Source of the DNA: a virus
Lineage: Duplodnaviria > Heunggongvirae > Uroviricota > Caudoviricetes
DNA length: 10,435 bases
IMG/VR virus record: IMGVR_UViG_2671180556_000023
Coordinates: 1 to 10,435 of that record
Reading direction: 5' to 3' (one strand)
This document shows, piece by piece, positions 1 through 7,023 of the stretch. The translations under genes and the position numbers were made by a program. Numbering within the stretch: the stretch's first letter is position 1; every line of letters starts with the position of its first letter. The notes under the pieces are model-generated. The model did no database searches. It worked only from the letters and a program-made list of their open reading frames with translations, and was not told the DNA's origin.

Positions 1-2343
1 TCAGGTTGTTGCAGGGTCGTCACATTTTGGCAGCCAGTCGCCGTAGCTTTCCTCTTTCAGCGTCAGGTTGGTCTGTATCCCCTGTTTGGTATGGCGCTTC
101 TCGTAATTCAGTCCGTATTCCTTCAGCATCACCGGCAGCCCCAGCCCGAACATTTTCAGACTGAGTACATTCCGGTAGCCGTTTGCCTCCATGTAGGCCA
201 GATAGGCGTGATAGAGGTATTTACGGTAGTTACGCGGGATGATACTGGCGTTCCCCATATACATGCCGCTGGTCTGCGGCAGGGTTTCCAGATAGCCGAT
301 AAAATCAAACGTCGGGTCGGCATCCCGTTTGATGTTCAGTGCCTCGTCTGAGTTCTGCTGGGACTGAAGCAGTGACCGGGCGAGCATCGGGTCGCTGAAC
401 TTCTGCATCAGGTGACGCACGATGACCGCCAGCTCGCGGGTGATTTTGTCCTTAAGCTGCGGGTCGCGCTCCTGCGGGGCTATCTGTTCCGGGAAGTGAA
501 TAATCACCCGCCGGCGTGACACGCCGCCGCTGCGGTCGGTGAAGCGCATCGGGTTATTGTTCACGGCCAGAATCACCGCCGGGATATGCGTGGAGTACGC
601 ATCCCGGTATTTCGGGTCAACGGACACCGCATCGCCGCCGGTGATGGCCTTGAGTCCGGCACCGTCGCCGCTCCATTTTTCCTGGTCCGGCAGGCGTATC
701 AGTGAGAAGCCAGTTAACGCGGCACGTTCACGCGGGGATTCCAGCGTCTCAATGGTGGCCGACGTGGCGTTATCCTCCCCGGCCAGCAGGGTGGCTATTT
801 CGGCCATGATACTTTTGCCGCTGCCGCCGGGACCGGTCACCTCCAGAAAGAGCTGCCAGTCATAGCGGTTTGCCAGCACCATAAACAGTGCGGCCAGAAT
901 CACGTCGCGTTTTTCCGCACGGCCACCGGCGGCACGGTCAAGCCAGCGCCAGAACGCGGGAGCGTGGGTTTCCAGCGTTTCACCGTCCACCGGCGGGGTG
1001 AAATCCACATCGCACAGGGTGCGCATCCAGTGTGACGGACTGTGCGGGTGGAACGTGCCGTTCTGCGTGTCGAGCACGCCGTTACGAAAGCCAATCAGGC
1101 AGCGGGAGGGGGCTTCCTGCTGCGGAATAATCAGCTTCAGGGTGTCCACCACGGAGGCCACCTTCCCGGAGGAGAACGGCGCACGCAGTCGCTGAAACAG
1201 CCCGGCCACATCCCGGGCAAAGTCCTGTGGCGGCAGCACCTTCCAGACACCATTTTCATAGCGGGACAGAAGCTGGCCGTTGGCATCGACCGCGAGCGCC
1301 TCGCCGTAATGCTCATAGATACGCATGGCCTTTTCGCTGGTACTCATGGCGGAAAACTCCGCTTCGCTCATGGTGTCGAACGGGCTTTCAGTCGGTGGCC
1401 GAATGGCATCGTAAATGGCCTTACGGGTGGCTTCCCCGCCGTACTGCGTGAAGGCATCATTCCAGTCACCGAAGACCGGCGGCAGGGCAACAACACCTTC
1501 ACACGCATCTGCGGCTGCGGCGGCTTTTTTCTGGCCGTCACCGCTGAGGTCACGGTCTGCGGCAAGGACAATCTGACAGGCCGGATGCTTCTGCCGGGCA
1601 AGTCTGGCCAGAGAAAGGAGGTTCACGGAAGAAAGCGCCACCATCACCGTTTCACCGGTCAGGTGATGCACGGTAAGTGCGGTCGCGTATCCCTCCGCTA
1701 TCCACAGACGTTTTCCGGCCTGGTTCTGTCCTTCAAGGGTGTGACAGGTGCCCCTGACCTGTCCGCCTTTCAGGGTGCGCTTACGGCCGTCAGCACTGAT
1801 TAACTGAAGGTTAACCAGTTCGCCGCTGTCGTCATACAGTGGCACCACAAGGTCACCGGCGCGCCAGCTCACGCCACCGGCTCTGTGTGTGCCGGTCAGC
1901 ATCCGGCATTCCCGGCCGGGAAAGCCCTTGCGGGTCAGGTAGGCGTTACCGGTTCCGGGACGGGTTTTCGCCATCAGGGTTTGTGCCAGTGCGGCGGCGT
2001 TCTTCCGGGCAGCGTCTGTTTCAGCACCGGCGGCGGCCGTCACTGCCGGGTCAGCCGGGTCAGCCGGGGGCAGGCTGCCGGTCACGGCAGCCACCTTTGT
2101 GGCCGCGTCGGATGGGGAGACACCAAACACCTTTTCAACCAGTTTCAGACCGTCACCGGCACCACACTGATTGCAGTACCAGGTGCCGCGCCCCTCCCTG
2201 TCATCAAAACGGAAGCGGTCACTCCCGCCACAGACCGGACAGGGCTGATGACGGTTTTTCAGCACCTGAATCCCCAGCGCCGGGAGAATACGCGGCCAGT
2301 GGCCGAGCGCATGGCTGACGGTGGCGGTTACGTTCATTTTCAT
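1..2343 (-). CDS. P4 alpha-type primase-helicase (replication protein), 780 aa, complete
   Basis: Full ORF with ATG at 2343 and TGA at 3-1; AAGGAG Shine-Dalgarno 9 nt upstream (2353-2358 region). N-terminal zinc-ribbon motif CPVCGG...CNQCG typical of primases; Walker A TGPGGSGKS in the C-terminal helicase half. Length is close to the 777 aa I recall for P4 alpha. Confidence 0.9.
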   Translation of the reverse strand: MKMNVTATVSHALGHWPRILPALGIQVLKNRHQPCPVCGGSDRFRFDDREGRGTWYCNQCGAGDGLKLVEKVFGVSPSDAATKVAAVTGSLPPADPADPAVTAAAGAETDAARKNAAALAQTLMAKTRPGTGNAYLTRKGFPGRECRMLTGTHRAGGVSWRAGDLVVPLYDDSGELVNLQLISADGRKRTLKGGQVRGTCHTLEGQNQAGKRLWIAEGYATALTVHHLTGETVMVALSSVNLLSLARLARQKHPACQIVLAADRDLSGDGQKKAAAAADACEGVVALPPVFGDWNDAFTQYGGEATRKAIYDAIRPPTESPFDTMSEAEFSAMSTSEKAMRIYEHYGEALAVDANGQLLSRYENGVWKVLPPQDFARDVAGLFQRLRAPFSSGKVASVVDTLKLIIPQQEAPSRCLIGFRNGVLDTQNGTFHPHSPSHWMRTLCDVDFTPPVDGETLETHAPAFWRWLDRAAGGRAEKRDVILAALFMVLANRYDWQLFLEVTGPGGSGKSIMAEIATLLAGEDNATSATIETLESPRERAALTGFSLIRLPDQEKWSGDGAGLKAITGGDAVSVDPKYRDAYSTHIPAVILAVNNNPMRFTDRSGGVSRRRVIIHFPEQIAPQERDPQLKDKITRELAVIVRHLMQKFSDPMLARSLLQSQQNSDEALNIKRDADPTFDFIGYLETLPQTSGMYMGNASIIPRNYRKYLYHAYLAYMEANGYRNVLSLKMFGLGLPVMLKEYGLNYEKRHTKQGIQTNLTLKEESYGDWLPKCDDPATT

Positions 2344-2357
2344 GGTGTTGTTCTCCT

Positions 2358-2678
2358 TCAGTGCAGTACCGGCGCTTTTATGTGACGGGCACAGAGTTCA
2401 TCCATCACAACCAGCCCGAGAAAGGACAGCGACGGCGCGGCCTTCAGGGGGCCGGATTCCATTAAATCTTCCAGCAGGGCACAGGCTATCTGACGCCCTT
2501 TTTCCTCACCGTGCTGGCGCAGATAAAAGCCCTCCAGCTCAGCGGCGATGGCCGCCTCCAGTGATTCAAGGGTGAGATGCGGGTAGCGGTGCTGACGTTC
2601 GCACACGGTCAGCCAGGCACAGGCGACAGCGCGACGGTAAAGGGCAGCGCGTAAGACGGGCGGTAAGGGTGTTTTCAT
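2358..2678 (-). CDS. Hypothetical 106-aa protein of the P4 left operon (size matches P4 orf106)
   Basis: ATG at 2678 preceded by GGAGG with 7-nt spacer; ends 14 nt before the alpha start. Assignment to P4 orf106 is by size and position only. Confidence 0.6.
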
Positions 2679-2813
2679 TTGTTTTCCTCCCTGTGACAGA
2701 TGACTGCATTCCGTGCCGGTTGCATTAACTGATAAGGCATATCTGCGTCTCCTGAAGACGTGCGTATCCCTGCGCGAATACGCACATTTAATTTTTCGGG
2801 TGTAGTTTTTTAA

Positions 2814-3269
2814 TTACAGATAATTGCGGTAACTGTTATCCGGGGTGATTTCCGGGTCAGGCTCCGTGCGGGGAATTTCCCGCCATTCCCGCGCCACCGG
2901 TGCCGCCCGGCTGGCCGGAACAGTGTCCTGCGGGTAAATATCCAGATATTTCTCCCGCCATTTCTGTAATTCCGGGTCTCCGGCCATTTCTTTCAGTACC
3001 GCATGCCGGTTTACGGGGCTGCGTTTAAACAGGTCAGGACGGTCACAGGTAAATTCCCGCAGAAAACGCCCCAGCGGGATGTCTGTGGTGCGCCCGTCGG
3101 CGAGGATACGCACAAGGATACTGAATTTACGGCGGTACGGGTTCCAGACAATTTCCGGGCAGCGGTACGGCATTTCCCACGGAATACCGTCTTCCAGAAT
3201 GCCGACCACGGCCACATCGGGAAAACCGGCAGAACGGTAAATCTCACCGGGCTGGGGAAAATCAAACAT
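2814..3269 (-). CDS. Hypothetical 151-aa protein (size and position match P4 orf151)
   Basis: ATG at 3269 overlaps the stop of the upstream ORF (ATGTTTGA), indicating translational coupling. Function not inferable from sequence. Confidence 0.7.
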   Translation of the reverse strand: MFDFPQPGEIYRSAGFPDVAVVGILEDGIPWEMPYRCPEIVWNPYRRKFSILVRILADGRTTDIPLGRFLREFTCDRPDLFKRSPVNRHAVLKEMAGDPELQKWREKYLDIYPQDTVPASRAAPVAREWREIPRTEPDPEITPDNSYRNYL

Positions 3270-3549
3270 GCGTCCTGTCTCCCCGGTCTTTCTGCTGGGC
3301 GAGAAAATCGCGGCACAGGCCTTTGGCTTTCAGCTCATTCAGCACAAAATCAATATCTTCATTCAGGTAGCTGAAAATATGCGGAATGTAGAGCTGATGC
3401 AGGCCGGAGAGTTCACGGTGAATCAAATCACCCCCAACAAACTGGGATACGGCGCTGGCGCGGTTGAGCTTATGGTAAGCCTCAATGCTGAGGTGTTCAC
3501 GGGCGTCATGACGCGCTGAGACGGTCTGAGGGGCTTTTTTATTACGCAC
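3262..3549 (-). CDS. Small protein, 95 aa if started at GTG 3549; possible epsilon-like (helper derepression) gene
   Basis: GTG at 3549-3547 preceded by GGAGG with 6-nt spacer and overlapping the kil stop (GTGCGTAA). An alternative in-frame ATG at 3594 gives 110 aa. The epsilon assignment is by position in the operon only. Confidence 0.5.
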
Positions 3550-3739
3550 GGGACACCTCCACCACCGGCAGACGGGCAGCAAGGGAGAGCACATAGTCAC
3601 GGACAAGGGAACGGCGGGCGCTGCGTTCATCACCGGCGACGGTGCGAAGCATGCAGATACGGGGATGACGGTCTGCGCGACGGACAGCCGCAAACACAAA
3701 GACAAATTCAGGGTGTGAGGGGGTAAGGGTTGTAGCCAT
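3542..3739 (-). CDS. kil: Kil-like 65-aa protein (annotated in databases as Icd-like cell division inhibitor)
   Basis: ATG at 3739 with AGGAGG 9 nt upstream; 65 aa, matching the published size of P4 kil; it is the 3' terminal part of the longer eta frame, as described for P4. Confidence 0.75.
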
Positions 3740-4141
3740 GATGGCAGCCTCCTGTGAATAGCAAATAACGCTATCGCCGGAGTTTCCACGCTCGATGGCG
3801 ATAGCCCAGACGGGGGTGGAAATACCGGCTTCACAGGATACCGGCCAGCCCGGAGGCTGCCCCGCCTGAGCTACCATTGACTCTGCGGCATAATGAGCGG
3901 ACGCGGGCAGGATGCACGGAATGCCATCTGCACGACTGACCACACACCACACCATAATCTGGCGCTCTGTGGCGTTGATTGCGACACAAAAAAAGACGCA
4001 TGGCGCGTCATATGTCGCCTGTGAATTGCTCGGGTTTCCACGCCCGGCTGCCGATTTTGCGGCAGCGGAAAAACTATATCCGCAAATGCCGGAAAAAGGC
4101 AAGCCAGAAAAAGGGAGTTTTTGCAGAGCGGGCATCATCAT
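3542..4141 (-). CDS. eta: Eta-like nested ORF, 199 aa, same frame as kil
   Basis: Three consecutive ATG codons at 4141-4133 (MMM) give 199, 198 or 197 aa, matching the published description of P4 eta with three likely start codons; the first ATG overlaps the vis stop (ATGA). The ORF-track start at 4186 is a non-ATG codon and is not used. Confidence 0.5.
3770..3805 (-). other. GC-rich stem-loop in the kil leader (9-bp stem, 18-nt loop), U-rich on its 3' side on the minus strand
   Basis: GCTATCGCC (3770-3778) pairs perfectly with GGCGATAGC (3797-3805). On the minus-strand RNA it is followed by GUUAUUUGCUAUU and lies about 30 nt upstream of the kil start. Confidence 0.4.
4073..4102 (-). promoter_or_regulatory. 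Candidate constitutive sigma70 promoter (PLE-like) inside eta, reading toward kil
   Basis: On the minus strand: -35 TTGCCT (4102-4097), 18-nt spacer, -10 TATAGT (4078-4073). It lies about 395 nt downstream of the predicted PLL start, consistent with the published P4 spacing of roughly 400 nt. Confidence 0.4.
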
Positions 4142-4404
4142 GCGTCGTACCCCCGTTTGCGTCCGGCGATGCGCCCGGCCATCCATGCGGTGACTTCAGA
4201 GTGCAGCCAGGCCACATTTTTACCGCCAAGACTCACCTGCGGCGGAAATTCCCCCTTACGGATGAGTTCATAGATGGTCGAGCGTGACAGGCCGCACAGG
4301 TGCATCACTTCCGGCAGGCGTAAAAAACGCTCCTGCGTGATGTCCGGCAGCGGCATCAGTGGTGTCACAGGGGCGGGAGACGGGGAAGAAAAAACAGCTT
4401 GCAT
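4138..4404 (-). CDS. vis: Vis/AlpA-family small helix-turn-helix regulator, 88 aa
   Basis: ATG at 4404 with GAGG 7 nt upstream; sequence ...[22 protein letters not shown]... is typical of AlpA/Vis-type HTH proteins; 88 aa matches P4 orf88. Confidence 0.85.
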
Positions 4405-4471
4405 CGGGCTACCTCGTTAATGTCCATACAGCACCGGATAAGTCCGTCCGGCTTCGGGTAGCGCTTTATTT

Positions 4472-4524
4472 TGTGAATATTTTCAGCAGACGCAACAGGG
4501 GGGATTTGTTCCGGCAGCCTTACA
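4472..4524 (-). promoter_or_regulatory. Candidate delta/Ogr-dependent late promoter for vis (PLL-like)
   Basis: Perfect TGT-N12-ACA dyad at 4507-4524; a second imperfect dyad at 4472-4489 (TGT-N12-CAG) about 37 bp closer to vis. The two centres fit the -55 and -18 positions described for P4 late promoters, predicting a start near 4460. Confidence 0.35.
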
Positions 4525-4550
4525 ATGGTTGTGTGTTTTTTGTTCATTTC

Positions 4551-4579
4551 CACTTAAAGTCATTTAAAGCCACTTAAAG
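4551..4579. repeat. Three helically phased direct repeats of C(A/T)(C/T)TTAAAG at 10-bp spacing
   Basis: cacttaaag (4551-4559), catttaaag (4561-4569), cacttaaag (4571-4579). Function unknown; lies between the PLL dyad and the iteron cluster. Confidence 0.5.
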
Positions 4580-4683
4580 CAATTTGTAATTTTTATAGTG
4601 AAATACAAATCGTTTCTTCTTATTCATTCCCGGCGAATTAATAAAAACAAACAGTAGTAAACAGCACAAAAAGTCCATGAGCG

Positions 4684-4787
4684 GGTGAACAGTGGTGAAC
4701 AGACGGTGAACAGTCATTACTGCGATTGTTCATCCTTTAACTTACTGTATTACTTATCTTTTTTATTAAGGTGAACAGAGGTGAACA
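4684..4787. repeat. crr-like cis replication region: cluster of TGTTCACC-type iterons
   Basis: GGTGAACA at 4684-4691, 4694-4701, 4705-4712, 4770-4777 and 4780-4787 (direct, 10-11 bp spacing), plus one near-inverted copy TGTTCATC at 4727-4734. The octamer TGTTCACC is the alpha-protein binding repeat described for P4 ori and crr. Confidence 0.7.
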
Positions 4788-4866
4788 GTAAAATATAAAA
4801 AAACAAACAGTAAGCCGGTTTTTCCTGCGACCTTTTCCTGGCTTGCCGGTGTGAGGATGAGTCTCC

Positions 4867-4922
4867 TGTGTCAGGGCTGGCACATCTGCAATGCGTCGTG
4901 TTGCTGTCCGGTGTACGTCACA
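4867..4922 (+). promoter_or_regulatory. Candidate delta/Ogr-dependent late promoter for sid (Psid-like) with two dyads
   Basis: TGT-N12-ACA at 4867-4884 and again at 4905-4922, centres 38 bp apart. These fit the -55 and -18 sites reported for P4 Psid and predict a start near 4931, 26 nt before the sid ATG. Confidence 0.45.
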
Positions 4923-4956
4923 ATTTTCTTAACCTGAAGTGACGAGGAGCCGGAAA

Positions 4957-5691
4957 ATGTCTGACCACACTATCCCTGAATATCTGCAACCCGCACTGGC
5001 ACAACTGGAAAAGGCCAGAGCCGCCCATCTTGAGAACGCCCGCCTGATGGATGAGACCGTCACGGCCATTGAACGGGCAGAGCAGGAAAAAAATGCGCTG
5101 GCGCAGGCCGACGGAAACGACGCTGACGACTGGCGCACGGCCTTTCGTGCAGCCGGTGGTGTCCTGAGCGACGAGCTGAAACAGCGCCACATTGAGCGCG
5201 TGGCACGCCGGGAGCTGGTACAGGAATATGACAATCTGGCCGTGGTGCTGAATTTTGAACGCGAACGCCTGAAAGGGGCGTGTGACAGCACGGCCACCGC
5301 CTACCGGAAGGCACATCATCACCTGCTGAGTCTGTATGCAGAGCATGAGCTGGAACACGCCCTGAATGAAACCTGTGAGGCGCTTGTCCGGGCAATGCAT
5401 CTGAGCATCCTGGTACAGGAAAATCCGCTCGCCAACACCACCGGCCATCAGGGCTACGTCGCACCGGAAAAGGCTGTCATGCAGCAGGTGAAATCATCGC
5501 TGGAACAGAAAATAAAACAGATGCAAATCAGCCTCACCGGCGAGCCGGTTCTCCGGCTGACCGGACTGTCAGCGGCAACACTCCCGCACATGGATTATGA
5601 GGTGGCAGGCACACCGGCACAGCGCAAGGTGTGGCAGGACAAAATAGACCAGCAGGGAGCAGAGCTTAAGGCCAGAGGACTGCTGTCATGA
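4957..5691 (+). CDS. sid: Sid-like capsid size-determination (external scaffold) protein, 244 aa
   Basis: ATG at 4957 with GAGGAG 8 nt upstream; the upstream GTG at 4939 lacks a ribosome-binding site. 244 aa matches P4 Sid; stop overlaps the delta start (ATGA). Confidence 0.85.
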   Translation: MSDHTIPEYLQPALAQLEKARAAHLENARLMDETVTAIERAEQEKNALAQADGNDADDWRTAFRAAGGVLSDELKQRHIERVARRELVQEYDNLAVVLNFERERLKGACDSTATAYRKAHHHLLSLYAEHELEHALNETCEALVRAMHLSILVQENPLANTTGHQGYVAPEKAVMQQVKSSLEQKIKQMQISLTGEPVLRLTGLSAATLPHMDYEVAGTPAQRKVWQDKIDQQGAELKARGLLS

Positions 5692-6188
5692 TTTACTGCC
5701 CGTCGTGTGGACATGTTGCTCATACCCGTCGCGCACATTTCATGGACGATGGCACCAAGATAATGATTGCACAGTGCCGGAATATTTATTGCTCTGCGAC
5801 ATTTGAAGCGAGTGAAAGCTTTTTCTCTGACTGTAAAGATTCAGGAATGGAATACATTTCAGGCAAACAGAGATACCGCGATTCACTGACTTCTGCCTCC
5901 GGCAGTATGAAACGCCCGAAAAGAATGCTTGTTACCGGATATTGTTGTCGGAGATGTAAAGGCCTTGCACTGTCAAGAACATCGCGGCGTCTGTCTCAGG
6001 AAGTCACTGAACGTTTTTATGTGTGCACGGATCCGGGCTGTGGTCTGGTGTTTAAAACGCTTCAGACCATCAACCGCTTCATTGTCCGCCCGGTCACGCC
6101 GGACGAACTGGCAGAAAGCCTGCATGAAAAACAGGAACTGCCGCCAGTACGGTTAAAAACACAATCATATTCGCTGCGTCTGGAATGA
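5688..6188 (+). CDS. delta: Delta-like late transcription activator (tandem Ogr-type zinc finger), 166 aa
   Basis: Two Ogr-like zinc-finger units (CPSCGH...C..IYC and CCRRC...C..PGC); 166 aa matches P4 delta; translationally coupled to sid. Confidence 0.9.
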   Translation: MIYCPSCGHVAHTRRAHFMDDGTKIMIAQCRNIYCSATFEASESFFSDCKDSGMEYISGKQRYRDSLTSASGSMKRPKRMLVTGYCCRRCKGLALSRTSRRLSQEVTERFYVCTDPGCGLVFKTLQTINRFIVRPVTPDELAESLHEKQELPPVRLKTQSYSLRLE

Positions 6189-6261
6189 GGGCTGCCGGTT
6201 AACCCCGGCCGTCGCCGCACACCGTATTTTTATTCTTCAGCATGATGAGAAAGAGATAACG

Positions 6262-6834
6262 ATGGAAAGCACAGCCTTACAGCAGGCCTTTGACACCTGT
6301 CAGAATAACAAAGCAGCATGGCTGCAACGCAAAAATGAGCTGGCTGCGGCCGAACAGGAATATCTGCGGCTTCTGTCAGGAGAAGGCAGAAACGTCAGTC
6401 GCCTGGACGAATTACGCAATATTATCGAAGTCAGAAAATGGCAGGTGAATCAGGCCGCCGGTCGTTATATTCGTTCGCATGAAGCCGTTCAGCATATCAG
6501 CATCCGCGACCGGCTGAATGATTTTATGCAGCAGCACGGCACAGCACTGGCGGCGGCACTGGCACCGGAGCTGATGGGCTACAGTGAGCTGACGGCCATT
6601 GCCCGAAACTGTGCCATACAGCGTGCCACAGATGCCCTGCGTGAAGCCCTTTTGTCCTGGCTTGCGAAGGGGGAAAAAATTAATTATTCCGCACAGGATA
6701 GCGACATTTTAACGGCCATCGGATTCAGGCCTGACGCGGCTTCGGTGGATGACAGCCGTGAAAAATTCACCCCTGCGCAGAACATGATTTTTTCGCGCAA
6801 AAGTGCGCAACTGGCATCACATCAGTCTGTGTAA
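6262..6834 (+). CDS. psu: Psu-like polarity suppression / capsid decoration protein, 190 aa
   Basis: ATG at 6262, TAA at 6832-6834; 190 aa matches P4 Psu and the N-terminus MESTALQQAFDTCQNNKAAWLQRKNELAAAEQEYL is as I recall for Psu. Confidence 0.85.
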   Translation: MESTALQQAFDTCQNNKAAWLQRKNELAAAEQEYLRLLSGEGRNVSRLDELRNIIEVRKWQVNQAAGRYIRSHEAVQHISIRDRLNDFMQQHGTALAAALAPELMGYSELTAIARNCAIQRATDALREALLSWLAKGEKINYSAQDSDILTAIGFRPDAASVDDSREKFTPAQNMIFSRKSAQLASHQSV

Positions 6835-6867
6835 AACTCCCCGAAAATCCGCCCGTTTTTACTGAAA

Positions 6868-6898
6868 AAAGCCATGCATCGATAAGGTGCATGGCTTT
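6868..6898. terminator. Stem-loop downstream of psu (11-bp stem, 9-nt loop), weak terminator candidate
   Basis: aaAGCCATGCA (6868-6878) pairs with TGCATGGCTtt (6888-6898). The U-tract is weak on both strands, so terminator function is uncertain. Confidence 0.3.
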
Positions 6899-6979
6899 GC
6901 ATGCGTTTTCCTGACTCATTTTCTGCAGATCAGGCCACGCCCGGCACGGCCTGAGCGTGACTGTGCAACTGCATTAAAA

Positions 6980-6999
6980 CCGCCCTGCAAAGCGGGCGG
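6980..6999 (-). terminator. GC-rich hairpin followed by UUUU on the minus strand, just past cos; candidate terminator for the cargo operon
   Basis: CCGCCC (6980-6985) pairs with GGGCGG (6994-6999), 8-nt loop; on the minus strand the hairpin is followed by TTTTAATGC. Confidence 0.35.
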
Positions 7000-7017
7000 G
7001 CGAGGCGGGGAAAGCAC
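6999..7017. other. cos site: 19-nt P2/P4-type cohesive end
   Basis: GGCGAGGCGGGGAAAGCAC at 6999-7017 matches the 19-nt cohesive end sequence I recall for P2 and P4; it sits about 165 bp after psu, as in P4. Confidence 0.75.
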
Positions 7018-7023
7018 TGCGCG

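Follow-up and report, generated by a model that had tools for sequence, protein, structure and literature searches.

Organisation of the satellite and its cargo

The window, meaning the whole stretch of 10,435 nucleotides analysed here, is a P4-like satellite prophage. Its positions 1-6998 align to P4 (NC_001609, 4636-11624) with 98.1% identity and one gap, and Pfam matches, DNA identity and Rfam matches place the P4 core genes alpha, the epsilon and cI region, sid, delta, psu and int in the P4 order. The open reading frames of sid, delta, psu and alpha are full length, with about 98% DNA identity to P4. A search of the whole window against Rfam (E<=1) returned solely P4 CI/C4, isrK and c4-a1b1. 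These matches lie at 3794-4079 on the minus strand, where the immunity RNA C4/CI reaches 76.6 bits and is accompanied by isrK and the c4 a1b1 target, and the P4-type immunity region is therefore intact. The features of the window are collected in Table 1.

Table 1. Coordinates of the features in the window, with the evidence for each
Feature	Position	Strand	Evidence and remarks
alpha	1-2343	-	expected Pfam families
sid, delta, psu	4939-6834	+	expected Pfam families
psu, final gene of the P4 late operon (sid-delta-psu)	6262-6834	+	Pfam Psu E = 8e-89; region 97% identical to P4
Bidirectional terminator-like hairpin (A6, 13-bp stem, T-rich sequence)	6868-6900		RNA fold
cos core common to P2 and P4	6964-7024		35 + 19 + 7 bp; P2 match and column conservation
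6-bp all-G:C hairpin with 8-nt loop, followed by UUUUAAUG	6976-6999	-	terminator scan match; -13.1 kcal/mol
19-nt cohesive end	6999-7017	+	exact match to P4 nt 1-19; nicks at 6998/6999 (top) and 7017/7018 (bottom) predicted from the P4 record ends
TGCGCGC, left-end cos flank	7018-7024		conserved at +1 to +7; its reverse complement GCGCGCA mirrors GCGGGCG at 5/7 bases
Retron RT ORF, 486 aa (N-terminal winged-helix-like domain, linker, RT domain)	7024-8484	-	PADLOC RT_II-A, Pfam RVT_1
Variable cargo cassette, GC 0.33	7025-9349	-	between cos core and int stop codon; L161 homology
Candidate retron ncRNA (msr-msd)	8016-8175	-	fold z = -3.4; a1/a2, msr hairpin and long msd hairpin, within the part encoding the RT linker
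NDT-like retron effector, frameshifted	8578-9162	-	PADLOC NDT_II-A E = 5e-59, profile positions 1-155 of 199
63-aa hydrophobic small membrane ORF, first cassette gene	9149-9340	-	ORF list; gene order in relatives
Tyrosine integrase, N-terminus beyond the window	9350-10435	-	Pfam Arm-DNA-bind_3, Phage_int_M, Phage_integrase

Near-identical copies of the element occur in E. coli O39:NM F8704-2, Z1323HEC0393 and E110019, where they are inserted in fhuE, and in E. coli carriers the element measures at most 11.2 kb, which is the size of P4. The satellite splits fhuE into two pseudogene fragments with no adjoining tRNA gene (L002 1659-2006 and 13228-15072; L162 259-606 and 17685 onward). A satellite with a related integrase (L161; 86% DNA identity) is located at tRNA-Sec and carries a different gene, of 474 aa, between the same flanks. 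It is homologous to the window up to 7023 and again from 9365, so the cassette extends all the way from the cos core to the int stop codon. The GC content of the cargo is 0.33 vs 0.56 in the backbone.

Judged from gene order and protein profiles, the cargo is a type II-A2 retron composed of a small membrane ORF, an NDT effector and a winged-helix/RT protein. The 486-aa protein matches PADLOC RT_II-A from end to end (E = 1e-200), and Pfam RVT_1 covers its residues 224-404. A small ORF of 55-70 aa is kept upstream of NDT in relatives (L163, L166, L167, L171, L169), and the 63-aa ORF of the window may be a fourth retron component. It has a weak PADLOC match to PDC-M43A, and its position is kept also in a non-satellite Vibrio locus. 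By homology to retron defence families, the cargo is a candidate for an anti-phage role. A promoter scan of 6200-9500 found 12 sites vs 11.7 expected and is therefore of no help in locating the cargo promoter.

The retron, with both junctions identical, is present in 7 of 5,426 E. coli genomes, and the copy in the window bears two lesions. Compared with five of the seven E. coli copies, 39 bp are missing in frame at 8083 (L002 10585-10623). This deletion, which E110019 and Z1323HEC0393 share, costs the protein 13 conserved residues and leaves the msd hairpin with a stem of 12 bp instead of 27 bp. At 8633, a T-run is one nucleotide short, likewise relative to five of the seven copies. The loss shifts the frame of the NDT gene, which is intact with 225 aa in the reference (L002), and Z1323HEC0393 has the base. 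As a result, the NDT product measures 194-205 aa vs 225-236 aa in intact genes, and the last 44 profile positions are lost. The lesion at 8633 is either a real pseudogene mutation or a homopolymer sequencing error. Since the retron bears two lesions, the element may be decaying.

The candidate ncRNA lies inside the RT reading frame, with a 12-bp a1/a2 pairing (GUGCUGGCCUCA...UGAGGCCAGCAC). Different sequences form the same architecture at eight homologous loci, which range from E. coli to Vibrio and Shewanella, and RNAalifold on seven of these loci predicted 54 pairs, with compensatory changes in 21. Across the ncRNA, the ORF frame has 0 stops in 8/8 loci (0-5 in the other frames), and an alignment of 23 proteins, with identities as low as 30%, shows no interruption of it there. 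As the frame stays open, translation apparently continues through the msr-msd and yields the linker that joins the winged-helix domain to the RT domain. This points to a segment of type II-A2 retrons that serves both as RNA and as protein. No retron family was matched in the Rfam search of the whole window at E<=1, and no statement that the msr-msd lies inside the RT ORF was found in the searchable text of PMC7736814 or in the wider searchable literature. A retron ncRNA kept inside a reading frame may outrank the cos junction in interest. Separately, the idea that the 486-aa ORF is an artefact over a non-coding RNA was considered and rejected on the open frame of its distant homologs.

The cos core and the backbone-cargo junction

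The sequence GGCGAGGCGGGGAAAGCAC has a single exact match in the window, at 6999-7017 on the plus strand with 0 mismatches, where 0.01 would be expected by chance, and is identical to P4 nt 1-19. The initial annotation had taken this 19-mer as the cohesive end of the element, and the alignment with the P4 right end and cos bears it out: the backbone matches up to 6998 and is followed by P4 nt 1-19. The linear P4 record has its right end exactly at window position 6998 and starts with the same 19-mer, so that by homology the left cohesive end starts at 6999. On these sequence grounds, the 19-mer is a P2/P4-type cohesive end at the expected place, 164 bp past psu, and 151 of the 164 bases of this interval are identical to P4.

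The extent of the surrounding core can be read from its conservation. Although P2-type phages otherwise share nothing with P4, P2 records match the window at 6964-7025 only, with 90-95% identity. Column conservation was determined from 158 loci with a cohesive end, of which 38 came from genome contigs by an exact 19-mer scan and 120 from a pattern search. For the latter, columns -9 to -1 and the 19-mer are invariant by construction, and only the 38 genome loci provide a free test of these positions. Five of these 38 exact matches (L009, L010, L026, L029, L039) are chance matches without cos flanks and were excluded. Among the psu-negative loci (117 distinct, mostly P2-like), conservation begins at about -36. 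In the 28 distinct psu-positive satellites, TGCGCGC at +1 to +7 is conserved at 90% or more and conservation then falls to 50-60%; the same seven bases are also conserved at 90% or more in the 117 psu-negative loci. Base +1 is T in the window element vs C in P4. The functional limits of cos were taken from secondary citations and conservation.

The junction between backbone and cargo, together with the composition change, had been placed at about 7018. Four independent lines of evidence move it to 7024/7025, namely the P2 match, the ends of homology, the conservation and the GC content. The maximum-likelihood change point of the GC content is 7024 and not 7018, with a fall from 0.54 (6600-7024) to 0.31 (7025-7500). 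The psu-cos side is matched in 2,265 of 5,426 complete E. coli genomes, and in 19 of 28 evenly sampled rows P4-like elements cease to be homologous after 7024, which is the mode of a range of 7022-7028. Because all four lines agree, the shared cos core can be set at about 6964-7024. By its conservation, TGCGCGC (7018-7024) belongs to this core and not to the cargo, and the final G of the RT stop codon therefore lies inside the conserved cos block. The stop codon is TAG, read as CTA at 7024-7026 on the plus strand, and it straddles the junction. Its distance of 6 bp past the cohesive end was given correctly, with 7018-7023 in between. Neither the cos match nor the junction can plausibly be put down to chance.

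The seven bases kept on the cargo side may have a structural reason. The 7 nt 5' of the predicted nicks read GCGGGCG on the top strand (6992-6998) and GCGCGCA on the bottom strand, with 5/7 bases identical. Such partial two-fold symmetry could explain why exactly 7 bp past the cohesive end are kept, and TGCGCGC is probably a bottom-strand nick box, although a symmetry of just 5/7 bases speaks against this reading. The cosN site of lambda has partial two-fold symmetry around its staggered nicks. The two sites are thus alike in having staggered nicks with partly symmetric flanking boxes (here GCGGGCG^ and GCGCGCA^, a symmetry deduced from the bases), and differ in the stagger, which is 19 nt here vs 12 nt in lambda cosN.

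Some lineages differ on the left side. In psu-positive satellites of the Klebsiella/Raoultella type (L019, L022, L023, L025, L034, L038, L058, L095, L106), about 60 bp after cos (+8 to about +70) resemble the P2 left end (ATTTATTT...GCGGCCTGAGCGCGTCG), and the cargo follows. An A/T-rich motif resembling ATTTATTT is found at about +17 to +35 in many satellites and in P2 itself, so that the left side of cos may have to be longer in some lineages. Three metagenome-assembled genomes labelled Bacillota, Clostridiales and Lachnospiraceae (L008, L024, L033) contain E. coli-type P2 or P4 cos regions, and the psu of L024 is 99% identical to that of the window. These Firmicutes-labelled contigs are probably due to binning contamination.

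Beyond the core, the sequence is variable. In 16 E. coli-type satellites whose psu genes are more than 94% identical, the sequence is unrelated from +8 on, and otherwise similar satellites carry variable genes between cos and int, as is characteristic of the P4 defence hotspot. PADLOC recognised two of nine cos-adjacent genes of other satellites, LmuB and an ApeA-like gene, and did not recognise the other seven. Taken together, it is very likely that 6964-7024 is the cos of a P4-like satellite and that the defence hotspot starts right after it, here holding a II-A2 retron transcribed toward cos.

Transcript ends and the history of the junction

In the proposed mechanism, a P2-family terminase would recognise 6964-7024 and cut with a 19-nt stagger at 6998/6999 and 7017/7018, and the cargo would start at the first base that is dispensable for cos. 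No donor 3' flank is left, since the final G of the stop codon is the last conserved cos base. In the prophage or circular form, the transcript of the retron operon would have to run through cos and could end either at a weak hairpin in cos with U4 (6999-6976) or at the likely psu terminator, which is bidirectional and stronger (6900-6868). Once packaged as linear DNA, the element would have the retron as its left-terminal gene block, parted from both candidate terminators. That the cargo leads after the left end of the packaged DNA, as had been proposed earlier, is supported by homology, as this place is held by gop-beta-cII in P4. In the prophage, where the defence system would act, the region is contiguous.

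The hairpin in cos had been put forward as a possible terminator of the cargo transcript. Both of its parts are present: the stem CCGCCC/GGGCGG pairs 6980-6985 with 6994-6999, and a T-run follows on the minus strand at 6979-6976. What did not hold up is its link to the cargo. The hairpin lies within the cos core, with base 1 of the cohesive end included in its minus-strand 5' arm, and as this core is common to P2, its presence is independent of the cargo. That it is a dedicated intrinsic terminator of the cargo operon, situated across cos from the cargo, is possible but on balance doubtful. Such a role would fit its six G:C pairs, its folding energy of -13.1 kcal/mol, the UUUU that follows on the minus strand and the flag by the consensus scan. 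At least 5/6 pairs also form more often on the minus strand (51 of 62 distinct flanks) than on the plus strand (41 of 62), and the portal gene of P2 likewise runs toward cos and stops about 170 bp short of it, which makes a shared weak terminator for leftward transcription conceivable. However, the sequence is kept in P2 and in satellites with oppositely oriented cargo, and the U-tract is just 4 long. The scan reported 4 sites vs 2.3 +/- 1.4 in shuffled sequences, which is not above chance, and the hairpin scores z = -2.75 alone but only -0.17, the level of shuffles, in its 71-nt context. Convincing covariation was not found among the 62 distinct cos flanks, in most of which the 3' arm is fixed by the search pattern, and the centre pair is mismatched in 20 of them; as a structure, the hairpin is not conserved. 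The hairpin is thus best described as a weak, putative terminator. A better candidate follows about 100 nt further on, where 6868-6900 folds with -21.5 kcal/mol (z = -4.1) on the plus strand and with -16.1 kcal/mol (z = -3.4), followed by U6, on the minus strand. This stronger hairpin probably terminates psu and would also halt minus-strand transcripts that have read across cos.

A different view is that the 19-mer is a relic in a defective prophage with a non-functional cos, which would make any statement about a packaged form moot. Signs of decay exist in the effector frameshift and the 39-bp deletion of the retron and in the IS66 and IS3 elements beside int in one carrier genome. Nevertheless, every cos core position that is conserved at 90% or more is intact in the window element, and the full-length, P4-like sid, delta, psu and alpha genes and the P4-sized element in E. 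coli carriers also argue against a relic, which is improbable.

The close spacing itself calls for an explanation. Among 29 sampled satellites, the closest ORF of at least 100 aa starts or ends between +7 and several hundred bp from the cohesive end, and the RT of the window, at +7, is the closest of all. Other close cases, at +16, +21, +26 and +28, are minus-strand genes with their 3' ends toward cos, and plus-strand first genes start at +109 or later. The RT gene is not truncated, as the C-terminus of its product is as long as in homologs outside satellites. The arrangement cos-TGCGCG-CTA is also present in a Serratia satellite with an 81% identical RT (cos GGCGAGGCGGGGGAAGTAT) and in Citrobacter satellites with a 66% identical RT (cos GGCGTGGCGGGGAGAGCAT), whose 19-mers differ at 3 positions. 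Since the 6-bp spacing recurs at these RT identities, the junction is old and kept and not the result of a fresh insertion. Tight spacing is not obligatory: another E. coli satellite, whose RT is 54% identical, has a spacer of 131 bp between retron and cos. Homologs in Shewanella, Vibrio and Pantoea lie outside satellites. The tight spacing would be in keeping with selection to stay compact, as the size of the element is limited to about 11 kb.

Alternatively, the tight junction could stem from a recent illegitimate insertion or deletion that happened to fall beside cos and has no selective meaning. The wide range of spacings among satellites and the related retron 131 bp away would be compatible with such an event. 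Against it stand the three lineages (RT identities 100, 81 and 66%) in which CTA directly follows TGCGCG next to different cos 19-mers, and the fact that both junctions are common to all seven E. coli genomes with the retron. A chance origin is accordingly given little credence. The kept junction instead points to vertical persistence or to joint exchange of block and cos, and not to repeated fresh insertion.

The variant cohesive ends (GGCGTGGCGGGGAGAGCAT, GGCGAGGCGGGGGAAGTAT) were observed in L163, L165, L166, L167 and L171, with the same TGCGCGC flank, and presumably match different P2-family helpers. In L166 (7584-8684), a Citrobacter-like metagenome contig, a truncated alpha-like gene (D5_N, DUF5906) comes directly after retron and cos in place of psu-delta-sid. 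This contig represents a rearranged or decayed satellite in which the 6-bp retron-cos junction is still kept.

A far-reaching and highly improbable idea is that the cos core doubles as a 3'-end signal for converging operons, namely the retron here and portal-terminase in P2, and that the overlap of stop codon and cos was selected for this coupling, beyond compactness. If true, the transcript of the defence operon would end properly only as long as cos is uncut, in the prophage or circle. This end would be lost upon terminase cleavage or while injected DNA is still linear, so that expression of the cargo would follow the physical state in which the satellite genome happens to be.

Relation to known retrons, cos sites and defence hotspots

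The classical retron-carrying relative of P4 is phiR73 with retron Ec73 (Inouye et al. 1991, cited in PMC9122126). By its description, it is likewise a P4-like satellite with a type II-A (NDT) retron in a non-essential region. Ec73 belongs to type II-A1 (PMC7736814), whereas the retron of the window is assigned to type II-A2, with a winged-helix domain on the RT ORF. Type II-A2 is described as an NDT effector followed by an RT with an N-terminal DNA-binding domain (Mestre et al. 2020, PMC7736814). The gene order in the window is the same, and the PADLOC models RT_II-A and NDT_II-A both match; it differs in the candidate msr-msd placed within the RT ORF, for which the searchable text of that study contains no such statement.

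The cos region conforms to that of P2 and P4 (Ziermann & Calendar 1990; Wang et al. 1973, cited in PMC9594776 and PMC9122126), with the same 19-nt cohesive end at the same position after psu. The conserved cos of P2/P4 is given as about 55 bp (PMC9594776; PMC9122126) vs the 61-bp shared block mapped here, and nothing essential differs.

A defence hotspot of P4-like satellites between psu/cos and int, with retrons among its cargoes, has been described (Rousset et al. 2022, PMC9122126; also PMC13586616), and a 2026 study widens this picture to thousands of elements (PMC13586616). Figure 1A of the earlier article depicts conserved and variable sequence next to cos, and cohesive ends are discussed as possible recombination substrates (Rousset et al. 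2022, PMC9122126). The layout with cargo beside cos is therefore already known and an ordinary property of P4-like satellites, present here in its tightest form, and since this locus was described by Rousset et al. 2022, the finding is a correct rediscovery. The sequence features of the initial annotation hold, while its interpretation is supported in part. It confirms the published rule that P4-like satellites keep swappable defence genes right beside cos. It adds the exact boundary of cos on the cargo side (+7, TGCGCGC), with a mirrored nick box as a possible reason, the overlap with the stop codon and a spacer-free retron-cos junction that persists down to 66% RT identity. The boundary map and the junction are useful for P4 cosmid design and for cargo swaps without damage to packaging. 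Compared with the hotspot of Rousset et al. 2022 (PMC9122126), the locus and its flanks are the same and the cargo likewise varies among similar satellites, while the cargo of the window ends nearest to cos of all those sampled, with its stop codon overlapping the core.
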